From Escherichia phage vB_EcoM_VR25: a stretch of DNA of 64,000 nucleotides. The DNA is taken from the sequence record NC_028925.1; one strand, 5' to 3'. The translations under genes and the position numbers were made by a program. This document shows, piece by piece, positions 4,845 through 17,637 of the stretch. A model generated the notes under the pieces. It was not told where the DNA came from and did not search any database. It saw only the letters and a program-made list of their open reading frames with translations. How positions within the stretch are numbered: position 1 is the first letter of the stretch; every line of letters starts with the position of its first letter.

Positions 4845-5098
4845 TGGATGATTTATTTGAAGCCATTAAATCAAACGACCTCGTAGCCGTTCGCAAATAT
4901 TTTGCTGAAAACATTGGCCCAGTATGCGGTAGTTTGATTGAAGAACGTAAGATTGAAATTGCACGTTCCATCATGATTGAAGGTGAAGAGCCTAAAGAAG
5001 ATGATGAAAACAAGGACGACAAAGCAGAAAAGAAAGACAAAAAAGAATCTGACGACGCTGACGAAGGCGACGACGATGAAGATGAGGACGATGAATAA
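4844..5098 (+). CDS. 67: Prohead core protein (acidic C-terminus)
   Basis: Small ORF with poly-D/E tail in the gene 67 slot; start overlaps gene 20 stop. Confidence 0.8.
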
Positions 5099-5526
5099 TG
5101 TTTATTATCCCTGACGATTACGAATTAACTCTTGAAAACATCGAAAGTGTTTCCGAAGAAGCTCAGGGACAATTTGATTCATTATCTGAAGCCTTAGAAA
5201 AAGACGATATAAATATTATTGTAGAAAACATGTTTGCAGCCGGTGAATATGAAAAAGCAACGGTTATCGGCGCACTGAATGAAGGTGTTCAGCTTAACGA
5301 ATTTATCGTTAAACATGTATCGTCTCGCGGTGAGTTAACCCGCACAAAAGACCGAGCTACTCGTAAGCGTAATGCTTTCCAAACAACTGGTCTTTCTAAA
5401 GCTAAACGTCGTCAAATTGCCCGACTGGCTACTAAAACGAAAAGAGCAAACCCATCTACGCAAATCAGAGCAGAGCGCAAGCGTAAAAAAGCTCGAGCTA
5501 AGCGTAAAGCATTCGGACTTGATTAA
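5098..5526 (+). CDS. 68: Prohead core protein
   Basis: 142-aa ORF in the gene 68 slot, translationally coupled (TAATG) to neighbours. Confidence 0.8.
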
Positions 5527-6164
5527 TGGAACAGAAACCAGAGTTACTAATCGAACACTGGGGTCAACCGGGCGAAATTAAAGATGGTGTACCGATGTTG
5601 GAATCTCATGATGGTTCCAGCAGCGGTTTAAAGCCAGGACTTTATATTGAAGGTATTTTCCTACAAGCTGAAGTTGTTAACCGTAATAAACGACTTTATC
5701 CTAAACGTATTTTGGAAAAAGCCGTTGCGGACTATATCGCCGAACAGGTTGAAACCAAGCAGTCTCTTGGAGAATTAAACCATCCACCTCGTGCAAACGT
5801 TGACCCTATGCAGGCAGCAATTATTATCGAGGAAATGTGGTGGAAAGGGAATGATGTATATGGCCGCGCGCGTATTATCGAAGGCGACCATGGTCCAGGT
5901 GATAAACTTGCTGCGAATATAAGAGCGGGTTGGATTCCTGGTGTATCTAGTCGTGGGCTCGGTTCCCTGACTAAATCAGCAAAAGGTTATAACATCGTCA
6001 ATGAAGGTTTTAAATTGACGGTTGGAGTAGATGCAGTATGGGGGCCAAGTGCTCCGGACGCTTGGGTCAAACCAAAGCAGATTACAGAATCACAAACGGC
6101 GGAAGCCGATACAAGTGCCGACGACGCCTTTATGGCTCTCGCAGAGGCTTTAAAGACGTTATAA
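5526..6164 (+). CDS. 21: Prohead core scaffold protein and protease
   Basis: 212-aa ORF in T4 gene 21 position between 68 and 22. Confidence 0.9.
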   Translation: MEQKPELLIEHWGQPGEIKDGVPMLESHDGSSSGLKPGLYIEGIFLQAEVVNRNKRLYPKRILEKAVADYIAEQVETKQSLGELNHPPRANVDPMQAAIIIEEMWWKGNDVYGRARIIEGDHGPGDKLAANIRAGWIPGVSSRGLGSLTKSAKGYNIVNEGFKLTVGVDAVWGPSAPDAWVKPKQITESQTAEADTSADDAFMALAEALKTL

Positions 6165-6167
6165 ATA
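6160..6167 (+). promoter_or_regulatory. Late promoter box TATAAATA upstream of gene 22
   Basis: Exact TATAAATA overlapping the gene 21 stop, about 30 nt before the gene 22 ATG. Confidence 0.55.
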
Positions 6168-6196
6168 AATGTATATCTTAACAACAGGACTACAAA

Positions 6197-7015
6197 ATGC
6201 TTAAAGAACAACTCATTTCTGAAGCTCAAAACATCGATGCTTCCGTTGCTCTCGATAGTATTTTCGAATCAGTTAATTTGTCCCCGGAAGCGAAAGCTAC
6301 CTTCGGCACTGTATTCGAAGCTACCGTCAAGCAACACGCCATCAAACTGGCAGAATCTCACATTCACGCCATCGCTGAAAAAGCTGAAGAAGAAGTCGAA
6401 AAGAATAAAGAAGAATCCGACGAAAAAGCAGAGAAAAAACTGAAAGAATCTGCAGCTAAATTCCTGGACCACGTTGCTAAAGAATGGCTTGCTGAAAACA
6501 AACTGGCTGTCGACCGTGGCATTAAAGCTGACCTGTTCGAATCCATGTTTACCGGCATGAAAGAACTGTTCGTTGAGCACAACGTTGTTGTTCCAGAAGA
6601 ATCTGTTGATGTTGTTGCAGAAATGCAGGAAGAACTGGAAGAGCAAAAAGCTGAAACCGCTAGTCTGTTCGAAGAAGTTTCTAAGCGTGATGCTTATATC
6701 AATTATGTCCAGCGCGAAGTTGCGTTGACTGAAGCGACCAAAGACCTGACCGAATCTCAAAAAGAAAAAGTTGGTTCTCTGGTAGAAGGTATGGATTATT
6801 CCGATGCGTTCGGTACCAAAATTGGCGCTATCGTTGAAATGGTTAAAGGTCAGGTAGACACCGCCGAAAAACCTATCACCGAAGCAGCTATAAATAATTC
6901 TGTAGACGATGCTGCGGCACTGAATTACATCTCAGAAGCAGTTGAAGAAAAAGGCGCCAAGCCTACCCTGTCCTTCGCGGACTTGTCTGCTCTCGCAGCA
7001 TCACGAATTTCTTAA
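6197..7015 (+). CDS. 22: Prohead core scaffold protein
   Basis: 272-aa acidic, coiled-coil-like ORF in the gene 22 slot. Confidence 0.9.
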   Translation: MLKEQLISEAQNIDASVALDSIFESVNLSPEAKATFGTVFEATVKQHAIKLAESHIHAIAEKAEEEVEKNKEESDEKAEKKLKESAAKFLDHVAKEWLAENKLAVDRGIKADLFESMFTGMKELFVEHNVVVPEESVDVVAEMQEELEEQKAETASLFEEVSKRDAYINYVQREVALTEATKDLTESQKEKVGSLVEGMDYSDAFGTKIGAIVEMVKGQVDTAEKPITEAAINNSVDDAAALNYISEAVEEKGAKPTLSFADLSALAASRIS

Positions 7016-7036
7016 TTTAATAAGGTTATACAACAC

Positions 7037-8596
7037 ATGAAAAAGAATGCATTAGTTCAAAAATGGTCCGCTCTGCTGGAAAACGAAGCTCTTCCTGAAA
7101 TCGTTGGTGCTTCTAAACAAGCTATCATCGCTAAAATCTTTGAAAACCAGGAACAAGATATCCTGACCGCTCCTGAATACCGTGACGAAAAAATCTCCGA
7201 AGCATTTGGTTCTTTCCTGACTGAAGCTGAAATCGGTGGTGACCATGGTTATGATGCTACCAATATCGCGGCTGGCCAGACCTCTGGTGCAGTAACTCAG
7301 ATTGGGCCGGCAGTTATGGGTATGGTTCGTCGTGCTATCCCGCATCTGATTGCGTTTGATATTTGTGGCGTGCAGCCTCTGAACAACCCGACTGGCCAGG
7401 TATTTGCCCTGCGTGCAGTTTACGGTAAAGACCCTGTAGCTGCTGGTGCTAAAGAAGCTTTCCACCCGATGTATGCTCCGAACGCTATGTTCTCTGGTCA
7501 GGGCGCTGCTGAAGCTTTCGAAGCTCTGGCTGCAAGCAAAGTTCTTACCGTTGGTAAAATTTATTCTCACTTCTTCGAAGCAACCGGTTCCGCACACTAC
7601 CAGGCTGTTGAAGCTGTAACCGTTGATGCTGGCGCTACTGATGCTGCTAAACTTGACGCTGAAGTTACCAAACTGCTCGAAGCTGGTAAACTGGCAGAAA
7701 TTGCTGAAGGTATGGCTACCTCTATCGCCGAACTGCAGGAAGGTTTCAACGGTTCTCAGGATAACCCGTGGAACGAAATGGGCTTCCGCATCGATAAACA
7801 AGTTATCGAAGCTAAATCCCGTCAGCTGAAAGCAAGCTACTCTATCGAACTGGCACAGGACCTGCGCGCTGTTCACGGTATGGACGCTGATGCTGAATTG
7901 AGTGGTATTCTGGCTACTGAAATTATGCTGGAAATCAACCGCGAAGTTATCGATTGGATTAACTACTCCGCACAGGTTGGTAAATCTGGTATGACCAACA
8001 CCGTTGGCGCTAAAGCTGGTGTGTTTGACTTCCAGGACCCAATTGATATCCGTGGCGCTCGTTGGGCTGGTGAAAGCTTCAAAGCTTTACTGTTCCAGAT
8101 TGATAAAGAAGCCGCTGAAATCGCTCGTCAGACCGGTCGTGGTGCAGGTAACTTCATCATCGCTTCCCGTAACGTAGTTAACGTACTGGCTGCAGTTGAT
8201 ACCTCCGTATCTTATGCTGCTCAGGGTCTGGGTAAAGGTTTCAACGTTGACACCACTAAAGCTGTGTTCGCTGGTGTTCTGGGTGGCAAATACCGTGTCT
8301 ATATCGACCAGTATGCTCGCGCAGATTACTTCACCATCGGTTACAAAGGCGCTAACGAAATGGATGCTGGTATCTACTACGCACCATATGTTGCACTGAC
8401 CCCGCTGCGTGGCTCTGACCCGAAAAACTTCCAGCCGGTTATGGGCTTCAAAACCCGTTACGGTATCGGTATTAACCCGTTCGCTGACCCGGCAGCTCAG
8501 GCTCCGACCAAGCGTATTCAAAACGGCATGCCGGACATTGTTAACAGCCTCGGCTTGAACGGTTACTTTAGACGTGTATATGTAAAAGGTATCTAA
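7037..8596 (+). CDS. 23: Major capsid protein
   Basis: 519-aa ORF; paralogous to the downstream gp24 ORFs (shared SRKLK..S..ELAQDL and YYAPY motifs); T4 order. Confidence 0.95.
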   Translation: MKKNALVQKWSALLENEALPEIVGASKQAIIAKIFENQEQDILTAPEYRDEKISEAFGSFLTEAEIGGDHGYDATNIAAGQTSGAVTQIGPAVMGMVRRAIPHLIAFDICGVQPLNNPTGQVFALRAVYGKDPVAAGAKEAFHPMYAPNAMFSGQGAAEAFEALAASKVLTVGKIYSHFFEATGSAHYQAVEAVTVDAGATDAAKLDAEVTKLLEAGKLAEIAEGMATSIAELQEGFNGSQDNPWNEMGFRIDKQVIEAKSRQLKASYSIELAQDLRAVHGMDADAELSGILATEIMLEINREVIDWINYSAQVGKSGMTNTVGAKAGVFDFQDPIDIRGARWAGESFKALLFQIDKEAAEIARQTGRGAGNFIIASRNVVNVLAAVDTSVSYAAQGLGKGFNVDTTKAVFAGVLGGKYRVYIDQYARADYFTIGYKGANEMDAGIYYAPYVALTPLRGSDPKNFQPVMGFKTRYGIGINPFADPAAQAPTKRIQNGMPDIVNSLGLNGYFRRVYVKGI

Positions 8597-8614
8597 GCCT
8601 TAAAAATTAAAAAA

Positions 8615-8637
8615 GGGACCTTCGGGTCCCTTTCTTG
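8615..8637 (+). terminator. Rho-independent terminator after gene 23
   Basis: GGGACC-TTCG-GGTCCC stem followed by T-rich tract. Confidence 0.7.
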
Positions 8638-8640
8638 TTT

Positions 8641-8934
8641 TCATACCATACCATTTAAATGAACTTCTACCCGGCGCTTGATGAGGTCTCTGAAATTAAC
8701 ACTGTTCTCTTGAAGTTTCAACCAGTTACCTGATTTGTCTTTGGTGTGAGTAGAATAATTACCATTCCACCAAAAATCAGTATCATATGCTAAGTTTTCA
8801 TATTTTTTAACTAGTTTGTTCAGAGCATTACCATTAACACCATTTGGGTATTTGTTGACCAATGCAACAACTTCAATTTCCAGATTTTTAAAGGTATTCC
8901 GAAGGAAAGATACTTTGTTCATTTTAGACTCCAT
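8641..8934 (-). CDS. Hypothetical protein (97 aa), opposite strand between genes 23 and 24
   Basis: ORF with GGAG 6 nt upstream of ATG and an early-type promoter upstream; no recognisable domain. Confidence 0.55.
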   Translation of the reverse strand: MESKMNKVSFLRNTFKNLEIEVVALVNKYPNGVNGNALNKLVKKYENLAYDTDFWWNGNYSTHTKDKSGNWLKLQENSVNFRDLIKRRVEVHLNGMV

Positions 8935-8958
8935 TGTTTGGTAACTCAGTATGAAATC

Positions 8959-8988
8959 ATTATGTCTTATCTTAATCGGGTTGTAAAC
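8959..8988 (-). promoter_or_regulatory. Early-type promoter (TTTACA-17 nt-CATAAT) on minus strand
   Basis: -35 TTTACA and -10 CATAAT with 17-nt spacer; near-identical copy at 34682-34711. Confidence 0.45.
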
Positions 8989-8994
8989 AACTTT

Positions 8995-9002
8995 TATAAA
9001 TA
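8995..9002 (+). promoter_or_regulatory. Late promoter box TATAAATA upstream of gene 24
   Basis: Exact TATAAATA 25 nt upstream of the gene 24 ATG. Confidence 0.6.
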
Positions 9003-9027
9003 AAGTATATCACAAAAGGAAAGCGCA

Positions 9028-10308
9028 ATGGCAAAGATTAACGAACTGCTGCGCGAGTCAACTACCACTACCAGCAACTCCTTGGGCCGCCCGAATCTTG
9101 TTGCTTTGACCCGTGCTACAACCAAATTGATTTACCGCGATATTATCGCTGAACAACGTACTAACCAGCCAGTTGCGGCTCTGTACGGTGTTAAATATCT
9201 TACTCCTGATAATGAATTCAGTTTCCAGACTGGTGCTACTTATGGTGGTGAAGTCGGTTCTAAAGACCGTACAACTATTCCAGAATTAGCTACAGCTACT
9301 CAGCCTGTTGCTAAAGGCGAATATGTAAAATATCAAAATATCGTTTACAAAGCTCTGGTGGATAATCCATTTGCAACAACCACAGAAACAGTATTATCTG
9401 ATGTTCTACAGGAAGGTCTTATTGCATCGACTATTCGTTTAGTTCCTGATGCAGCGCATACCGAGAAATTTGAAGCCGGTGATGTTGAAATTAGTAACGC
9501 CGTGTTCCAGGTTAATAAATGGAATGCTCCTGTTAAATCCCGTAAATTGAAAACTGCACTGACTGTTGAACTTGCTCAGGATATGGAAGCAAACGGTTTT
9601 AATGCTCCTGCTTTCCTGGAAGACCTGCTTGCAACTACCATGGCAGACGAAATTAACAAAGATGTTCTGCAGTCTCTGATTACCGTTTCCAAGCGTTATA
9701 AAGTCACTGGCGTTTCTGATAAAGGTTTCATCGATTTGACATATGATTCAGCTCCAGAAGGCGCACGTAAACTATACGAACTGGTTTGCGAAATGAACTC
9801 TGAAATTCAGAAAACTACATCTTACTCTGGTACATTCGTTGTTGCCTCAAGTCGTGTGGCCGCGATGCTCGCCGGTTCCGGTTGGTTGAAACATAAACCT
9901 GAAGATGAACAATGGCTCCCGGAAACCGCGTACGGCTATTTGATTAATGGTCTTCCTGTATTCTGTGATGTTAACAGTCCATTGGATTATGTAACCGTTG
10001 GCGTTAAAGAAAATTACGGTGGAAACGAAGTCGTAGGCTCAATCTTCTATGCTCCTTATACCGAAGGCCTGGACTTAGATGATGAAGAACATGTAGGTGC
10101 GTTTAAGGTCATTGTGGACCCAGACAGCTTGCAGCCATCTATCTCCTTGATGGTTCGATATGCACTTTCAGCTAACCCTTACACCGTTGCTAAAGACGAC
10201 AAAGAAGCTCGTATTATCGATGCAACTAATATGGATTTAATGGCCGGCCAGAGCAACATGTCTTATCTGCTCGGTGTTAAACTTCCACCAATCATTTATG
10301 AGGCGTAA
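9028..10308 (+). CDS. 24: Head vertex protein gp24
   Basis: 426-aa ORF; N-terminus MAKINELLRESTTT..SLGRPNLVALTRATTKLIY matches remembered T4 gp24. Confidence 0.93.
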   Translation: MAKINELLRESTTTTSNSLGRPNLVALTRATTKLIYRDIIAEQRTNQPVAALYGVKYLTPDNEFSFQTGATYGGEVGSKDRTTIPELATATQPVAKGEYVKYQNIVYKALVDNPFATTTETVLSDVLQEGLIASTIRLVPDAAHTEKFEAGDVEISNAVFQVNKWNAPVKSRKLKTALTVELAQDMEANGFNAPAFLEDLLATTMADEINKDVLQSLITVSKRYKVTGVSDKGFIDLTYDSAPEGARKLYELVCEMNSEIQKTTSYSGTFVVASSRVAAMLAGSGWLKHKPEDEQWLPETAYGYLINGLPVFCDVNSPLDYVTVGVKENYGGNEVVGSIFYAPYTEGLDLDDEEHVGAFKVIVDPDSLQPSISLMVRYALSANPYTVAKDDKEARIIDATNMDLMAGQSNMSYLLGVKLPPIIYEA

Positions 10309-11592
10309 ATGCAAAAGATTAACGCACTAATTCACGAATCAACATTAACGGCGGCCAACCAGGTCGCCCGTCCTAATTTGCTTTCTTATACTCGGGCTAC
10401 GAATAAACGAATTTTTAAAGCTCTTGTGGCCGAACAGAAAACTACTCAGCCAGTCGCAGCGCTGTATGGCGTTCGTGTTCTGAACCCAGATGATAAAATG
10501 ACTTATCTTGGTGGAGCAACATTTGCAGGCCAGATTGGTATGTTCGAGCGTAAGAATATTCCAGAATTTACGAACAAAGACGAAGCTTATGCAGTCGGCA
10601 ACATGTTCCAGTTTGAAAGCATTGTATTCAAAGCTTTGGAAGCTTCTCCTTTTGCCGGGACCCTCGAAACTGATTTGGGTGAAGTTATTTCTGAAGCCAT
10701 TGCGGCTGGCCATATAAGAATGATGTCAGATGCGGCTTTCACTGATAAATTTGAACAAGGACATCCTGAAATTGCTGAAGCCGGTTTCCGTATTGATAAA
10801 TGGCAGACTGAAGTTAAATCCAGAAAACTGAAAACCTCTTTAACCGTTGAGCTTGCGCAAGACCTGGAAGCAAATGGTTTCGACGCAACAGATTTTATTG
10901 ATAATATCCTTGGTATTCAAATGGCAGAGGAAATTAATAAGGACGTACTGCAATCTTTAATTACCGTGAGTTCGCGTTTTAAAGTCCAGGGTGTTTCCGA
11001 AAAAGGTGTACTTAATCTTACTGATGCCGCTTATGATAATGCTCAGGACCGTGCTCGAACTCTGTATTATTATATGTGCGAAATGAATTCCGCAGTTCAA
11101 CGTCAGACTTCGTTCGCTGGTACATATGCAGTCGCTTCTTCCCGTTGTGCAGCTATTTTAGCAGCTTCTGGCTGGGTTGAGAAAAAGGAAGACCAAGATG
11201 AATTGGCCTATGGTGTTCTGAAGAACGGTTTGCCACTTTATGCAGATATGAATAGCCCGTGCGATTATGTTATTGTTGGTGTAAATGCTGATATGGGTGA
11301 AGGTCAGACAGTCGCATCTTTGTATTATGCGCCTTATACGGAAGGTCTTAGTGAAGTTGATGATGAGGGTGACACCTCGGTTGGGGAATTCAAGGTTATC
11401 GTTGACCCCGAAAGTTTACAGCCTACAGTTGCACTGTTAGCTCGTTATGCACTGACTGCAAACCCTTACACCGTTGCTAAAGACGATAAAGAAGCTCGCA
11501 TTATTGATGGAGCTGATATGGATAAGATGGCTAACCAAAGCCAATTGAGTTCTTATCTTGGTGTTAAACTTCCACCACTGGAAAAAGAATAA
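10309..11592 (+). CDS. Second, diverged gp24-like head vertex protein (tandem paralog)
   Basis: 427-aa ORF starting on the TAAATG junction; clearly homologous along full length to upstream gp24 (MQKINALIHESTLT..., shared C-terminal ANPYTVAKDDKEARIID). Confidence 0.88.
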   Translation: MQKINALIHESTLTAANQVARPNLLSYTRATNKRIFKALVAEQKTTQPVAALYGVRVLNPDDKMTYLGGATFAGQIGMFERKNIPEFTNKDEAYAVGNMFQFESIVFKALEASPFAGTLETDLGEVISEAIAAGHIRMMSDAAFTDKFEQGHPEIAEAGFRIDKWQTEVKSRKLKTSLTVELAQDLEANGFDATDFIDNILGIQMAEEINKDVLQSLITVSSRFKVQGVSEKGVLNLTDAAYDNAQDRARTLYYYMCEMNSAVQRQTSFAGTYAVASSRCAAILAASGWVEKKEDQDELAYGVLKNGLPLYADMNSPCDYVIVGVNADMGEGQTVASLYYAPYTEGLSEVDDEGDTSVGEFKVIVDPESLQPTVALLARYALTANPYTVAKDDKEARIIDGADMDKMANQSQLSSYLGVKLPPLEKE

Positions 11593-11612
11593 GGGCCTTG
11601 CGGCCCTTTTTA
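11593..11612. terminator. Bidirectional terminator between gp24 paralog and rnlB
   Basis: GGGCC-TTGC-GGCCC stem flanked by A-run and T-run. Confidence 0.7.
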
Positions 11613-12617
11613 TTAACTAATTAATGCAATCCAAACATGTCTTAATGTATCTCTTACATTTGCAATGAGTTGCTTTTTAACTTCAACAGGATTTTCCGTC
11701 TGGGTTAATTCAAGGCCTTCCCGACCTGCTTCTTCCAAAATATCTTGAACAGTCAAACCCATTACCTTTCCAAAATCCTTTGGCGTTACTTCCCCAATTT
11801 TACTGATAACATTGTTGATGCGGTTAACAGTCACATAATCAGTGAACTTCCATAAAATGTCCAGGTCTTCCTGGGACAACACAACAGCAGCCTTGATAGG
11901 CTTATCAGACTTTTTCTTTTCGCTGAATTTAGAGTTCTTACATTTAATCGCTACGCGCTCACCATTAGGTAACCAGGCCGGAGTATCAGGTTTAAGAACA
12001 TACCCTTCTGCAGTGAATACTTTACCTTCAACCTTTGCGTCAAAATCGGTGGTATTCGCGGTAGTCAAACCCGCATTATCTACTGTAAAATTGTAATCAG
12101 GAACCACAGAATCCAGGTCGTTAGGGAGCTTAATCAAGTCTTCAAAGCTACCCGTAGCCAGTCGTGGGGCAACCTTAAATTTATGGATAATACAGAAGGC
12201 TTCCATCAATGAATCAGTCAAAACAGATTCAGAGCCATCTTCCTTAGTAACGCGGATATCAAATACATAGAAATCTTTGTCACCATAATCAACATTCTTC
12301 TGGATACCCGCCCCGGCAAACTCACCATAAATTTGGTATGATTGATAATTAATATCCTGTAAAAGTCTCTGCACAGTTTTAATGGAATCTGCATAGTTCT
12401 TGAGTACAATTTCGTAGCCATAGAAATCTTCTGCAGGTAGGATAGGTCCAGTGCGTTTCGCACATGTCACATTGTCTTGTTCAATGATTAATGAAAAGTT
12501 GGTGCCATGAATTTTCTCACGCGCTACCCATTCACCGCTGGTGAAGCCTTGCAGGCGAATCTTTTCAATGAACTTGTTGTTATAGTGATTTTCAAGGCTG
12601 TTGTATTTCTTAAACAT
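11613..12617 (-). CDS. rnlB: RNA ligase 2
   Basis: 334-aa ORF; [13 protein letters not shown]...[10 protein letters not shown] (ligase lysine motif) matches remembered T4 Rnl2. Confidence 0.92.
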
Positions 12618-12714
12618 AATCTCTCACTTTTGATGTTATAAATATCATTATAAATTATACCCTCTATACTTTCTTTCTCTGAAAGGAATTAATCGTATCG
12701 GAAGGTCTAGAACC

Positions 12715-12742
12715 ATTATACCACAATTTTATTTGAAGCAAA
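12715..12742 (-). promoter_or_regulatory. Middle-type promoter (MotA-box-like TTTGCTTCA plus TATAAT) upstream of rnlB
   Basis: Minus-strand TATAAT at 12715-12720 and TGCTT box at 12734-12742; followed by GGTTCTAGACC box seen at other promoters. Confidence 0.4.
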
Positions 12743-12746
12743 AAGG

Positions 12747-13010
12747 TCAGAATTTTACATACAATGTTGGCTTGTTTTCTTGCCAATTATAATTCCAGGT
12801 AAATGATGTAAATTTTTCTGCCCGCAGAAAATCAGATATCTTTGTGCGGTTTCCTTCTTCATACTCTTTTTCAGAAACTGCCATATTAACAGCATCTTTG
12901 CCATTCTCGGCAGCGGCAATAGCCACTTTGCGAAATATAACAATAAAGTCATTTGCAACTTTATCTTGTGATTCTTTAGCCATTTGGCGTAGTTCTTCTG
13001 CGAATGTCAT
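12747..13010 (-). CDS. Hypothetical protein (T4 24.2-position)
   Basis: 87-aa ORF, position only. Confidence 0.6.
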   Translation of the reverse strand: MTFAEELRQMAKESQDKVANDFIVIFRKVAIAAAENGKDAVNMAVSEKEYEEGNRTKISDFLRAEKFTSFTWNYNWQENKPTLYVKF

Positions 13011-13210
13011 TTCTTCACCTTTTTGTTAAACAACCGCTTGCGGTATACGATTTTCTCTCGTGACTTGAACTTTTCTTTAGCTTGTTCAACATCAACCCAT
13101 GCCTTTGCCATTTCTTTAGCGGTCCCGCCTAATACCTTGGCGATTTCAATAAATGTCATACCAGTTTCATGCAGGAAATGTACTTTAACCTTATTCATAA
13201 CCATTCTCAT
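13007..13210 (-). CDS. Hypothetical protein (T4 24.3-position)
   Basis: 67-aa basic ORF overlapping downstream gene by 4 nt. Confidence 0.6.
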   Translation of the reverse strand: MRMVMNKVKVHFLHETGMTFIEIAKVLGGTAKEMAKAWVDVEQAKEKFKSREKIVYRKRLFNKKVKK

Positions 13211-13347
13211 GTTGAGTTAGTGAAGCTATCTTAACATGGAATTTTTAACTTGTAAACAGGAGTTTTATGCCAGATATTCTTGAACGTAAAGATTTACTTT
13301 ACAACCGCCACTACTTTAATAAATATTAAATTAATAACGGAGGATTT

Positions 13348-14928
13348 ATGACACAAACTACAGGTGAAAAAGAAGGCGTATTTTACGGTTATTCTCTTTA
13401 TGATTTGAATAAAGAAAAACTAATAACTTTTGATGAATTACTTACAGGTGTTCAAGGAGAGCCCGGAGAAAATGGCGATATTGGACCAAAAGGCCCTATT
13501 GGTTTAACAGGTCCTCAAGGACCGAAAGGTGATACCGGGTCAAAAGGTATTAAAGGTGATACCGGCCCTCAAGGTATTCAAGGGCCCGCTGGCCCACAAG
13601 GTCCTCAGGGAGAAAAGGGAGTCCAAGGTTTAGCTGGAGTCCAAGGCATTCAAGGACCAGTCGGCCACCAAGGAGTGAAAGGTGATACCGGCCCTCAAGG
13701 TATTCAAGGACCGAAAGGTGATACAGGTCCTCAAGGCCCACAAGGTGACAAAGGCGAAATGGGTCCGGTGGGTCCGGCTGGTCTAACATGGAAAGGAACA
13801 TGGGACGCTGATGTAGAGTATTCTATAAATGAGGCTGTCGGATATGGTGGTTCTTTATATTTCGCCAAAACAAAAGTTCCTAATGGCGAAATACCAACAC
13901 CGACTTCTAACTATTGGGGTGTTTTGGCTACCGAGGGTCCACAAGGTCCACAAGGTCAACAAGGTCTTAAAGGTGATACCGGTCCTCAAGGTATTCAAGG
14001 ACCTGTAGGGCCTGTAGGGCAGCAGGGTATTCAGGGACCAAGAGGACTTCAAGGGTCAGAAGGTGAAATAGGACCGCGGGGTATTCAAGGGCTAAAAGGC
14101 GAAACTGGGCCCGCTGGTCCACAGGGTATTCAAGGGCTAAAAGGCGAGGTGGGTGCTCAGGGTCCTTCTGGTTCTCCTGGACTTACAGGACCAGAAGGAC
14201 CTCGTGGGTTAACAGGCGAAGCTGGAGCTCAAGGACCTCGTGGTGCTATAGGTCCTATCGGTTTAACAGGTCCTATCGGTTTAACGGGTCCTCAAGGTAT
14301 TCAAGGTCCTAAAGGTGATACAGGTCCTCAAGGCTTACAAGGTCCTCAAGGCTTACGAGGTATTCAAGGAGCTCCTGGAGTAAAAGGAGAAGCGGGTGCA
14401 CAAGGTCCTATCGGTTTAACAGGTCCGAAAGGTGATACCGGTCCTCAAGGTATTCAAGGACCGAAAGGTGATACAGGAGCACAAGGTCCTATTGGTTTAA
14501 CTGGACCTAAAGGTGATACAGGCCCGAGCCCTTATACTGTTTATAATTATTCTAATGTTGCAACTGGTTATGCTGAAATGGTTATGCCTGGTGTGTCATC
14601 AAACACAGTATTTAGACTTCGTTCAGTTGGAACTAATATAGAATATAGTGTTCTAAGTAAAGGCGGAGCTAATAGATATGTAGATTGGCACTTTTCAATT
14701 CCAAGTGTTTCCGGCAATACAGTAAGTACTAATAGCGGAACTAATACATTAACTCCTACAGGTAATTTTACTATTGTGGCGACCGCTTATAATGGACTAA
14801 GGGGATTTACAATAACATTATGCGAGTGGGGTTCAAGAGCTATTGTTGATATCACTGTTTATCATCATGGGCGTTCGGGAGACACAACCAAAGCTGTGGC
14901 TATTCGTATGACTACTACAAAATACTAA
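13348..14928 (+). CDS. Collagen-like (Gly-X-Y repeat) protein with aromatic globular insert and C-terminal globular domain
   Basis: 526-aa ORF, GGAGGA RBS; two long uninterrupted G-X-Y blocks (about 13450-13790 and 13930-14525) separated by a W/Y-rich segment; about 135 aa non-collagen C-terminus. Confidence 0.85.
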   Translation: MTQTTGEKEGVFYGYSLYDLNKEKLITFDELLTGVQGEPGENGDIGPKGPIGLTGPQGPKGDTGSKGIKGDTGPQGIQGPAGPQGPQGEKGVQGLAGVQGIQGPVGHQGVKGDTGPQGIQGPKGDTGPQGPQGDKGEMGPVGPAGLTWKGTWDADVEYSINEAVGYGGSLYFAKTKVPNGEIPTPTSNYWGVLATEGPQGPQGQQGLKGDTGPQGIQGPVGPVGQQGIQGPRGLQGSEGEIGPRGIQGLKGETGPAGPQGIQGLKGEVGAQGPSGSPGLTGPEGPRGLTGEAGAQGPRGAIGPIGLTGPIGLTGPQGIQGPKGDTGPQGLQGPQGLRGIQGAPGVKGEAGAQGPIGLTGPKGDTGPQGIQGPKGDTGAQGPIGLTGPKGDTGPSPYTVYNYSNVATGYAEMVMPGVSSNTVFRLRSVGTNIEYSVLSKGGANRYVDWHFSIPSVSGNTVSTNSGTNTLTPTGNFTIVATAYNGLRGFTITLCEWGSRAIVDITVYHHGRSGDTTKAVAIRMTTTKY

Positions 14929-14937
14929 GGAGCTTTA

Positions 14938-15801
14938 ATGGAACCGGTTAAAGCTGTGTTAGAGCCTGATGTAATAGATGTGGAATATGGTAATACATAC
15001 TCGGCTACTGTAACTCTGTCTCCTATAGAAAATATTCCAGATGGTTCCGTGATAAGATATGATTGGGTTGTTAATAACAAGTTCGTTGGTACGGGTGAAG
15101 CTACTCGTACCACCCAACCATCTCAGACCGGAAATTATGTATTATCATGTAGAGTATTCATTACTCCGCCTAATGAAAATACTGTAATGATAACAACTAA
15201 TAAATCATATGGGTATGTATATAAAAATTCCGATACAAGTCCAGTAGATGCAGAAATATTATATGATAACAAGATATACCAAATAGGAAGCAAAGTTAGA
15301 TTATTAGCCGTTGCCAATAACCCAGATACCAACTTTGTTAAAGGTATTATATGGAAGGATGCTGATGGTAAGATAATAGGTATAGGTCGGGAATATATCC
15401 ATACAATGCAATCAGAGTATGATATAGTTCGAGCTAAAGTTACAATGGATTCGCCTATAAGAGATGAATTTAGTAAGAACTTTACTATACATTTGTACGC
15501 TATAAATGTTCAAGAAGGAACATGTATAAGATATATTCATCCTTTAGACCACAGGGATGCAGGATTTATCTGGTGTGGTTGGTGGGTTATGGATGAAATC
15601 CAACGAGCGATAAAACTTGGGCTGGATTGGAAAAATCCAAAAGAGCTAGATTTAAATTACAAGTGTGATTTAGAGACATTAGCGTTATTGCTCAAGACAT
15701 ATCCTGAAGCCGAAGTTCAAGAATCAAGACACGGATATATAATAACCAGACTACAAATTGAGACTGGCGAAATATATAAAAAACCATATGAAGTAAAATA
15801 A
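14938..15801 (+). CDS. Hoc-like capsid decoration protein (second hoc paralog)
   Basis: 287-aa ORF, AAGGAG RBS; C-terminal region (HPLDHR..IWCGWWVMDEIQ..YPEAEVQESRHGYII) shares the capsid-binding domain with the canonical Hoc downstream. Confidence 0.85.
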   Translation: MEPVKAVLEPDVIDVEYGNTYSATVTLSPIENIPDGSVIRYDWVVNNKFVGTGEATRTTQPSQTGNYVLSCRVFITPPNENTVMITTNKSYGYVYKNSDTSPVDAEILYDNKIYQIGSKVRLLAVANNPDTNFVKGIIWKDADGKIIGIGREYIHTMQSEYDIVRAKVTMDSPIRDEFSKNFTIHLYAINVQEGTCIRYIHPLDHRDAGFIWCGWWVMDEIQRAIKLGLDWKNPKELDLNYKCDLETLALLLKTYPEAEVQESRHGYIITRLQIETGEIYKKPYEVK

Positions 15802-15803
15802 AA

Positions 15804-15817
15804 GGGCCTTGCGGCCC
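15804..15817. terminator. Bidirectional terminator between convergent hoc-like and hoc genes
   Basis: GGGCC-TTGC-GGCCC stem with flanking A/T tracts. Confidence 0.65.
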
Positions 15818-15824
15818 TTTATCA

Positions 15825-16928
15825 TTAATAGACGTAATCGTATATAATACCAGCTTCCAATGCCGAACGGTGGACGATACGACCGTTACGAGATTCCTGT
15901 ACATCAACTTCCGGGTAATCACTAAGCATTTTGGCTAATACCGCCAGATGACAATAATATGGTGTATCCTCTTTAGTGGCTTTTTTCCAATCTGTACTTT
16001 CAGATGTTAATTTCTGAATAGCGTCCATAACCCACCAGCCACACCAAATATACGCAGTATTACGGACAGGAAGTGGATGTACATAAATTAAAGGGCATTC
16101 TTCTGGAATAACAGGCTCTGCTTCTTCCACAGTAACGGACTTAGTACCTGATTTAACTGAATTTGTAAAGCCTGTTTGTGATGCGGTAACTTCACAAGTA
16201 TATGTCTTCAAGCCTTCAGTGGATTCCGTTATTGCTCTTGTTGCTTCTGTTGAGTTGTCGTCCCATTTATATGCAAGAGTCGCACCAGGGATAGCAGGGG
16301 ACACAGAAGCTGTCAAATTGAATGGAACATCAACCGTTGCAGTAGACGGGCCTGAAATCTCAACAGTGAACTCAGGAAATGTATTGTTTTCGACCGTAAC
16401 AACTACTGCCTCAGGATTAATAACTTGATTGTCATAATCTGCCGCAGAAACGGTAATTTGGCAAGTTAAAGAAACTGGTCCTGCGTCAGTAGCAGCACGA
16501 GTAATATCTTTAGTAATTTCACCAGTAGACCACAAATATGCTATTGTAGCTCCACCGGGTTCACCTGTTACATTAGCCGAAGCGTTATATTCCTGACCAA
16601 CTTTAACAGTAGGAGTGGAAGTTGTTAATGTTGCTGTTGCAGCCATAGTCTTATTATTAACCGTAATGGTTGTTTGAGCCTCTGCCGTTTCAGGCTCTCC
16701 TTCTTCCGGCGTTGTGGTGGCAACAACTTTAATTACTTTTGAACCTGCTGGGCCAGCTGCAATATAATCCATAGTAGCAATAACAGAATCTTGTGGAACA
16801 TCATCAACGGTCCATACAAAAGATTCGGTACCAGCGACAGCGGCTCCAGCCCCAGTAGCAGTAAAATTAGTTGTTGCACCTATAACCGCTGTAGGTGTTA
16901 AAGGGGCAATTGATACAGTATAAGCCAT
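15825..16928 (-). CDS. hoc: Highly immunogenic outer capsid protein Hoc
   Basis: 367-aa ORF, Ser/Thr/Ala-rich Ig-like repeats plus C-terminal YVHPLP..YIWCGWWVMD..YPEVDVQESRNG motif as in T4 Hoc. Confidence 0.92.
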   Translation of the reverse strand: MAYTVSIAPLTPTAVIGATTNFTATGAGAAVAGTESFVWTVDDVPQDSVIATMDYIAAGPAGSKVIKVVATTTPEEGEPETAEAQTTITVNNKTMAATATLTTSTPTVKVGQEYNASANVTGEPGGATIAYLWSTGEITKDITRAATDAGPVSLTCQITVSAADYDNQVINPEAVVVTVENNTFPEFTVEISGPSTATVDVPFNLTASVSPAIPGATLAYKWDDNSTEATRAITESTEGLKTYTCEVTASQTGFTNSVKSGTKSVTVEEAEPVIPEECPLIYVHPLPVRNTAYIWCGWWVMDAIQKLTSESTDWKKATKEDTPYYCHLAVLAKMLSDYPEVDVQESRNGRIVHRSALEAGIIYDYVY

Positions 16929-16956
16929 AAAACCTCCAAGGGCCGAAGCCCTTTTG

Positions 16957-17637
16957 TTAATTTAAACGAATAAAAGATGAGTTACGTGTTTCACGAATAA
17001 GAATGGAACCGTCACGATTGATATAGTAAATCAAACTAAACAATGTTTGGTGTGCGCTTGCATGAGTAAAAGAAGTAGGGCGTTCTTTCCAGTCCGGGGT
17101 CTCTTTAATCCACTGGTAAATCCACCAAGGGAGAGTACAATATCCAGGAGCTTTGCCCAGCATAAGCAGATTGGGGCTAAAATTTTTAGGCAGTGTAAAT
17201 TTAGGAGTTTCAGCTTCGATGATTTGAGCGACAGCTTCTTCAAAGTCTTCGGAAACAAACGGCACTTCAATTTCAACGAGTTTAACTTCTGATTCAGGAA
17301 CAACTTCCTGGGTAACTTCGACTACTTCAACGGGTGCTTCTGGAGCATCAAACAAAAGAACAGCTTCAGGTTTAGCTGATTCTTCACCTTCAAACTTACC
17401 ACCTGATAATTCATCATCGGCATTAATAAGGTCGGTGATGCTTAAGCCTTCGTTATCGTCCGGCATAGGCATGTCAGCAAATGCTTGCAGCCCGGCTTCC
17501 AGGTCAATCAACATATTATCGAAAGTTTTTGTTTTCTTAACATCAACACCAAGCGATGATGCATATTCAGCTAATTTTTCTTTGGCTTCTTTTTTCTCGA
17601 GGACACGAATTTCCTCAATATAGTTCTTATCAATCAT
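16957..17637 (-). CDS. inh: Probable Inh (inhibitor of prohead protease)
   Basis: 226-aa ORF in the T4 inh slot between hoc and uvsW; assignment by position and size. Confidence 0.65.
   Translation of the reverse strand: MIDKNYIEEIRVLEKKEAKEKLAEYASSLGVDVKKTKTFDNMLIDLEAGLQAFADMPMPDDNEGLSITDLINADDELSGGKFEGEESAKPEAVLLFDAPEAPVEVVEVTQEVVPESEVKLVEIEVPFVSEDFEEAVAQIIEAETPKFTLPKNFSPNLLMLGKAPGYCTLPWWIYQWIKETPDWKERPTSFTHASAHQTLFSLIYYINRDGSILIRETRNSSFIRLN

Follow-up and report, generated by a model that had tools for sequence, protein, structure and literature searches.

Two genes of the gp24 type lie head to tail in the head-gene cluster of Escherichia phage vB_EcoM_VR25, of which a stretch of 64,000 nucleotides (record NC_028925.1; hereafter the window) was analysed, and this region is a conserved two-gene vertex-protein cassette of Gaprivervirus/Dhakavirus-type T4-like phages, both products of which quite probably serve as penton subunits. 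The two open reading frames (ORFs), here called copy 1 (9028-10308, 426 aa) and copy 2 (10309-11592, 427 aa), are on the plus strand and both start with ATG, and the junction between them reads GAGGCG-TAA-ATG-CAA, with the stop codon at 10306-10308 abutting the start codon at 10309. An earlier note on this DNA had described two full-length, head-to-tail gp24-type ORFs joined by TAAATG, a description that is borne out by the ORF list, by the junction itself and by the matches of both products to PF07068 and to the T4 gp24 structure 1yue. The duplication as such is textbook-level annotation for this phage group, and what the present analysis adds is a conserved operon architecture, a split between the copies that is older than the T4 gp24 lineage, and evidence for the exchange of the cassette between phages.

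Occurrence and prior annotation of the gene pair

In a megablast search of the GenBank phages, the region 8600-11700 of the window was 98.4% identical at the nucleotide level to Escherichia phage vB_EcoM-VR7 and 96% identical to VR26, both of which are members of Gaprivervirus, and judged by this identity the window belongs to a Gaprivervirus phage. The two-gene vertex pair is already known and is not new. A duplication of gene 24 is said to have been mentioned as early as 2004, in a paper on phage JS98. The pair is labelled 24(1)/24(2) in VR7 (HM563683), 24a/24b in JS98 (Dhakavirus) and capsid vertex protein I/II in VR5, VR20 and VR26, it is annotated as gp108/gp109 in Salmonella phage S16 (Gelderlandvirus), and it is also annotated in Klebsiella phage F48 (Marfavirus), in Enterobacter phage CIP9 (Kanagawavirus) and in P896.

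A tblastn search with copy 2 matched 1533 places in 1416 gp24-bearing phage records, of which approximately 117 (~8%) have two gp24-type genes; T4-type genomes have one gp24 place per record, the locus of T6 being an example of the single-gene state. From the records compared, the pair is not specific to this lineage. The cassette as considered here comprises the genera Gapriver-, Dhaka-, Gelderland-, Kanagawa- and Marfavirus, and the window carries, as they do, a copy-1-type gene followed by a coupled copy-2-type gene, each grouping with its own orthologues (100% bootstrap), in the gene order 20-67-68-21-22-23-(small ORF)-24(1)-24(2)-rnlB-hoc.

Two intact members of the gp24 lineage

The products of copy 1 and copy 2 align by BLASTP from end to end with 242 identities in 428 positions (57%), 75% positives and E=3e-176, and this pairwise comparison agrees with the earlier note in its claim of homology over the whole length combined with substantial divergence. 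Both products match Pfam family PF07068 (copy 1, E=3e-99; copy 2, E=3e-98) and T4 gp24 (PDB 1yue) over residues 1-424 (E=1e-197 and 4e-148, respectively), well above any chance level, the matches to gp23 chains being at ~1e-11; in direct comparison with gp23, each copy is 28-29% identical over ~250-280 residues, corresponding to the C-terminal half of gp23. Copy 1 is 70% identical to gp24 of T6 and of a Mosigvirus and 99% identical to VR7 24(1). Copy 2 is 99.8% identical to VR7 24(2) and 56% identical to the T6/Mosigvirus gp24, with 55-57% identity to T4-type gp24 and to copy 1. Both genes are thus intact members of the gp24 lineage within the HK97-fold capsid family, and copy 1, by its degree of identity and its grouping with T4-type gp24 (95-99% bootstrap), is the orthologue of T4 gp24 and would be the conventional vertex (penton) protein.

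The prohead protease of T4 removes 10 N-terminal residues from gp24 (PMC9958956). The N-terminus of copy 1, MAKINELLRE↓S (the arrow marks the predicted cleavage position, after Glu10 in T4 gp24), equals the first 11 residues of T4 gp24 exactly, and that of copy 2, MQKINALIHE↓S, keeps the (L/I)-x-E↓S cleavage context. The motif L-(L/I)-x-E↓S is found at residues 7-11 of every copy 1 and every copy 2, and one metagenomic copy 2 (M61) has E↓SN.

A structural model was made for copy 2 alone with AlphaFold2 (predicted local distance difference test score, pLDDT, 69.6; predicted template-modelling score, pTM, 0.65). Its best Foldseek matches are the T4 gp24 chains 5vf3_a, 7vrt_he and 1yue, with template-modelling (TM) scores of 0.72-0.86, namely 0.81/0.83 to 5vf3_a and 0.77/0.86 to 7vrt, as compared with ~0.53-0.62 for gp23 chains. 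For copy 1, we infer a gp24-type HK97 fold from its 70% identity to T4-type gp24.

Ten positions are fixed in all 11 copy-2 proteins and absent from 21 other gp24 proteins (in T4 numbering L34R, Y57V, T68G, P244Q, K328N, 334G, E335Q, 414S, L415Y and 425K), and the same comparison revealed one private single-residue insertion in copy 2, after position 353. For copy 1 of the two-copy phages, the only private residue in common is Y313F. A clustering of the copy-2 signature in the N-terminal arm was considered and rejected, as it was suggestive among 46 fixed differences and gave p=0.11 with the strict set. Together with its placement in the trees described below, copy 2 is a distinct, older sister subfamily of gp24 that keeps the whole architecture and is always the second gene of a pair.

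The pair has the layout of a late operon

The features of the locus are as follows (coordinates in the window, strand, description).

7037-8596, plus: gene 23, major capsid protein, upstream neighbour and distant paralogue (context)
8995-9002, plus: T4-type late promoter motif TATAAATA, 26 nt 5' of the copy-1 start, the only one serving both genes
9016-9021, plus: Shine-Dalgarno sequence AAGGAA of copy 1, kept as (A/G)AGGAAA in 7 of 7 representatives
9028-10308, plus: gene 24 copy 1, 24(1)/24a, 426 aa, PF07068, T4 gp24 orthologue
10300-10303, plus: Shine-Dalgarno sequence GAGG of copy 2, inside the last sense codons (Tyr-Glu-Ala) of copy 1
10309-11592, plus: gene 24 copy 2, 24(2)/24b, 427 aa, PF07068, distinct gp24 subfamily
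11591-11608, no strand assigned: GC-rich hairpin with T-run, putative bidirectional intrinsic terminator, 7-pair stem with 5 G-C pairs, both strands
11613-12617, minus: rnlB (RNA ligase 2), convergent downstream neighbour, PF09414 and PF18043 (context)

The exact motif TATAAATA occurs 20 times in the window as compared with 4.6 expected occurrences, with none between 9003 and 12636, and it is present at an equal distance from copy 1 in VR7, P896, JS98, S16, CIP9 and F48. The gene 3' of gene 23 in the head cluster thus has a late-promoter motif, as is the case for gene 24 of T4. Gene 23 has a terminator hairpin of its own at 8612-8633, and the hairpin at 11591-11608, which would close both the 24(1)-24(2) operon and the convergent rnlB, lies directly 3' of the copy-2 stop codon in 7 of 7 representatives. 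Given the GAGG within the end of copy 1 and the TAA-ATG junction at 10306-10311, translational coupling of the two genes is predicted, and in all loci examined the junction is either abutting, a 1-nt gap, or an overlap of 1 or 4 nt. The layout of promoter, ribosome-binding site, junction and hairpin recurs in VR7, P896, JS98, S16, CIP9 and F48 (five genera), and the adaptation of codons to gp23/gp22 usage is similar for the two genes (copy 1, 0.50; copy 2, 0.44). As read from these signals, whose activity is predicted, the two genes make up a bicistronic late operon that is served by a single late promoter, is translated in a coupled manner and ends in a single terminator.

Both copies are constrained and evolve independently

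The ratio of nonsynonymous to synonymous substitution rates (dN/dS) was calculated by the Nei-Gojobori method for the window compared with VR7, P896 and JS98, with the following results.

Window versus VR7: copy 1, 0.056; copy 2, 0.017
Window versus P896: copy 1, 0.050; copy 2, 0.028
Window versus JS98: copy 1, 0.048; copy 2, 0.021

For the single gp24 of T6 compared with that of a Mosigvirus, dN/dS was 0.035. Between copy 1 and copy 2, the identity of the DNA is 62% and that of third codon positions 41% in the window (0.39-0.44 in seven genomes), with a synonymous divergence (dS) of ~1.9, that is, saturated. The reading frames of both copies are intact in 11 of the 11 lineages examined. Gene conversion or concerted evolution between the copies was rejected, as the similar stretches are short and encode invariant peptide; BLAST matches in two pieces or at two places arise because the copies share such short, protein-constrained stretches. 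Both copies are thus under strong purifying selection and evolve independently without decay, and copy 2 is, if anything, more constrained than copy 1.

These data uphold the view of the earlier note that the duplication is old rather than a recent repeat, given the DNA and third-position identities, the saturated dS and the lack of conversion tracts, and that it is maintained by selection, with dN/dS at 0.05 for copy 1 and at 0.02-0.03 for copy 2. Inactivating changes in one of the copies, which the note had named as grounds for doubt, were looked for in both frames and none was found. The data also bear on the idea that copy 2 has no function of its own, being either a redundant spare or a duplicate in decay. 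T4 and most of its relatives manage with one gene, which in T4 can moreover be bypassed via gene 23 (PMC9958956; PMC10580926), and to this extent a dispensable second copy would be understandable. However, the low dN/dS of copy 2, its intact frames, its retention across at least 6 lineages whose orthologues are only 65-84% identical, and the agreement of the copy-1 and copy-2 trees without gene conversion speak for a selected function, and the selection data effectively refute this idea.

The split between the copies is older than the T4 gp24 lineage

In a neighbour-joining (NJ) tree of 24 gp24 proteins, the copy-1 proteins form a clade (100%) that is sister to a clade of T4, Mosigvirus and Karamvirus proteins (99%), and the copy-2 proteins form a clade (100%) outside copy 1 and the T4-type proteins, near that of Jiaodavirus JD18. 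Topologies were also compared by maximum likelihood (ML) with a self-written program, using an exchange matrix derived from BLOSUM62, empirical frequencies and four gamma categories. The best topology was (JD18,(copy 2,(copy 1,T4-type))), with a log-likelihood (lnL) of -8621.1, and a tree constrained to place copy 1 and copy 2 as sisters was 36.5 lnL worse (Kishino-Hasegawa test, z=2.9; resampling of estimated log-likelihoods, RELL, 0.999 versus 0.001). Root-to-tip lengths were 0.45 for copy 2, ~0.5 for copy 1 and 0.37 for T4-type proteins, and these lengths together with the topology tests rule out that copy 2 is a recent, fast-evolving duplicate.

Distant relatives of copy 2 (65-69% identity), including that of Erwinia phage FBB1, were found in a set of 5.8 billion proteins, and in the FBB1-like contigs gp23 is again followed by copy 1 and copy 2, the two copies overlapping by 1 nt. 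When these pairs were included, all copy-2 proteins still formed a single clade (100%), and the NJ tree became (FBB1-type copy 1,(T4-type single gp24, enterobacterial copy 1)), with support values of 96% and 95%. The same nested arrangement, with the T4-type proteins inside copy 1, was the best by ML (lnL -11073.4, RELL 0.87), while an origin of copy 2 after the T4 split was 45 lnL worse (z=3.0, RELL 0.000). In the GenBank phages, IMG/VR, metagenome contigs and Logan assemblies, every copy-2-type gene lies directly 3' of a copy-1-type gene, and no phage with a copy-2-type gene alone was found in the GenBank phages, IMG/VR, the metagenome contigs and the 5.8-billion-protein set.

According to these trees, the split between copy 1 and copy 2 predates the separation of copy 1 from the gp24 of T4, Mosigvirus and Karamvirus. 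Given this order of branching, the single gene 24 of T4 is most likely the result of a loss and not the two-gene state the result of a gain here. The statement of the earlier note that T4 has a single gene 24 thus holds for the T4-type phages, whereas the direction of change that the phylogeny favours is most likely a loss in T4. The most economical reading is probably an ancient duplication, after which the T4-type lineage lost copy 2 or had its cassette replaced, and the branching order suggests that the two-gene state is ancestral to the single-gene state of T4, RB69 and Karamvirus.

A different history, in which copy 2 is a xenologue that came from a diverged, unsampled T4-like phage and was inserted behind the resident gene 24, so that T4 never had a copy 2, strikes us as unlikely. 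It would fit the position of copy 2 outside copy 1 and the T4-type proteins and near the Jiaodavirus node, its higher identity to JD18 gp24 (63-65%) than to copy 1 (56-57%), and the apparent movement of the vertex locus between lineages. Yet no donor was found, all copy-2-type genes down to 65% identity being second in a pair, the branch lengths are clock-like, and the best tree nests the T4-type proteins in copy 1, an arrangement for which the T4 lineage must have undergone a loss or a replacement, however copy 2 originated. Two points of the tree analysis itself weigh against our reading of an ancient duplication with subsequent loss. The ML model and the fixed topologies within clades are simplifications of our own, and the placement of T4-type proteins as the sister of all copy 1 is 9.5 lnL worse than the nested tree and is not rejected (z=1.1); this placement favours the xenologue, as copy 2 could then stem from an unsampled phage and no loss in T4 would be needed.

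The vertex locus appears to move between lineages

The genes that flank the pair have histories of their own. In the RnlB tree, Gaprivervirus and Dhakavirus group with T4 and Mosigvirus (99%), and in the gp23 tree S16 groups with the Karamvirus CkP1 (100%) and F48 with another Karamvirus (86%), while copy 1 of all enterobacterial two-copy phages forms one clade (100%) and the trees of copy 1 and copy 2 are mutually congruent. Across the region 5000-17000 of the window and the loci compared with it (L002-L016 and L059-L063), the gp23 and RnlB trees are discordant with gp24 and with each other. A gp23 tree had been considered as a proxy for the species tree and was set aside, as it is poorly resolved and discordant; it served to show mosaicism only. 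Because the trees of the flanking genes disagree with those of gp24, we propose an exchange of cassettes, and the one-gene and two-gene states appear to be alternative alleles of the vertex locus, traded between lineages via recombination in the conserved flanks. The discordance of these gene trees also indicates gene-by-gene mosaicism in the head-gene region of the Tevenvirinae.

Possible roles of the two products

In T4, gp24 is added at the 11 non-portal vertices at a late stage of prohead assembly and stabilises the head against acid and proteases (PMC9958956; PMC10580926), its binding to the prohead vertices is thought to trigger activation of the protease (PMC9958956), and point mutations in gene 23 can make it dispensable (PMC9958956; PMC10580926). 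Given this background, both a structural specialisation and a regulatory sub-role of a second gp24 are conceivable, and we favour a lattice-bound role because of the tight constraint and the full architecture of copy 2. According to this proposal, both products would be made late in infection and in comparable amounts, the first 10 residues of each would be removed by the gp21 prohead protease, as the conserved motif suggests, and both would enter the capsid shell as the penton subunits of the 11 non-portal vertices. The ancestral job would fall to copy 1 and a specialised, still penton-type job to copy 2, with copy 2 likely residing in separate homopentamers on a subset of the vertices or mixed with copy 1; the two may also come into use under different conditions. 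The single-gene state of T4 would then have come about by loss of copy 2 or by a swap of the cassette for a single-gene allele.

On the other side of the balance, a full-text literature search found neither a paper that treats the pair nor virion proteomics or cryo-electron microscopy of a two-copy phage, the proteomics paper PMC13119998 covering single-copy Jiaodaviruses, and the PDB matches to either copy include no structure from a two-copy phage, only T4 gp24. In addition, the quality of the copy-2 model is moderate (pLDDT 69.6), and the copy-2 signature residues show no significant regional concentration (p=0.11 for residues 20-70), so that the sequence gives no pointer to changed contacts.

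It is also conceivable that copy 1 alone builds the vertices and that copy 2 is not part of the shell, acting instead as a prohead assembly factor, as a protein that triggers or regulates the gp21 protease, or as a decoy for a host defence able to sense capsid proteins. The ten private fixed substitutions and the insertion of copy 2, at positions that are otherwise invariant (for example L34R, Y57V, P244Q and E335Q) and at which copy 1 keeps the ancestral state, would be compatible with such a departure, and the proposed activation of the protease by vertex binding of T4 gp24 (PMC9958956) makes a regulatory sub-role imaginable. However, copy 2 has retained a full-length gp24 architecture without large indels, the cleavage motif and the gp24 fold, it shares the late, coupled expression signals of copy 1 and a similar codon adaptation, and its constraint is tighter than that of copy 1, as one would typically see in a protein that is held by many contacts in the lattice. 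We therefore consider a non-shell role of copy 2 quite improbable.

Within the preferred reading of two penton subunits, we further speculate that both paralogues may be shell components that form their own pentamers on non-equivalent vertices of the prolate head, such as the single axial apex versus the ten shoulder vertices, or the portal-proximal versus the distal ring. This arrangement is a tentative and rather doubtful one, but if it were true, no earlier tailed phage would have shown a specialisation for vertex classes by dedicated penton paralogues, and the uniform vertices of T4 would represent a secondary simplification.

The structural question raised by the pair is how 11 apparently equivalent penton positions use two strongly conserved paralogues that do not interchange. 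If the two-gene ancestry is confirmed, T4 would be a simplified derivative, and the culturable phages VR7, JS98 and S16 could provide a system for studying the specialisation of the HK97 fold to particular lattice positions.

Neighbouring genes in the window

The slot between genes 23 and 24 is an insertion hot spot. In the window it holds an antisense ORF of 97 aa (8641-8934, minus strand) with no Pfam match, which is annotated as hypothetical in VR7 and JS98; the slot is occupied by a homing endonuclease gene in T6, in Acinetobacter phage 133 and in a Tegunavirus, and it is empty in S16, F48 and JD18.

Downstream of the pair, between rnlB/24.3 and the Hoc-like genes, lies a gene (13348-14928, plus strand) for a protein of 526 aa, most of which is made up of collagen Gly-X-Y repeats, with six stretches matching PF01391 (E=2e-50). 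Its VR7 homologue has 427 aa, and thus the length of the collagen repeat varies between close relatives. A faint collagen match is also present directly after copy 2 in one FBB1-like contig (L063, 2676-3674).

Two convergent genes for Hoc-like head-decoration proteins follow, at 14938-15801 (plus strand, 287 aa) and 15825-16928 (minus strand, 367 aa), the products of which are 28% identical (E=6e-28), have a C-terminal region of ~90 residues in common and do not match Pfam. Both are labelled Hoc-like in VR7. JS98 is a two-copy phage with respect to gp24 as well but has only one hoc, and this second capsid protein of the window has thus been duplicated independently of the gp24 pair.

Comparison with known systems

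The closest known systems are 24(1)/24(2) of VR7 and their equivalents in JS98, S16 and VR5/VR20/VR26, which have the same locus, gene order and junction and differ in nothing of substance from the pair described here; with 98.4% nucleotide identity to VR7 over the region, the window represents a distinct isolate of the same set.

The pairs of the Erwinia phage FBB1-like contigs (L059-L063) likewise follow the order gp23, copy 1, copy 2, and their copy 2 clusters with that of the window (100%). They represent a deeper lineage, with identities of 65-70% (copy 2) and 63-64% (copy 1), and have extra plus-strand genes after copy 2. Two such genes lie between copy 2 and the convergent rnlB (4845-6382 in L059, 4826-6341 in L061 and 2676-4506 in L063), encoding proteins of ~340 and 165-280 aa with no Pfam match or a faint collagen match, and they are absent from the enterobacterial two-copy phages.

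T4 gp24 (PDB 1YUE, 5VF3, 7VS5) shares with the pair the family, fold, length, position after gene 23, late promoter and propeptide motif, and it is the orthologue of copy 1, with 70% identity. T4 has one gene only, whereas copy 2, with 55% identity to T4 gp24 and its private fixed residues, is without a T4 counterpart. A parallel is found in gp23 and gp24 themselves, where an HK97-fold shell protein was duplicated and then specialised for a distinct position in the lattice (PMC9958956); these two proteins are only ~20-29% identical and are unlike in length and processing, whereas the two gp24 copies described here are 57% identical and collinear.

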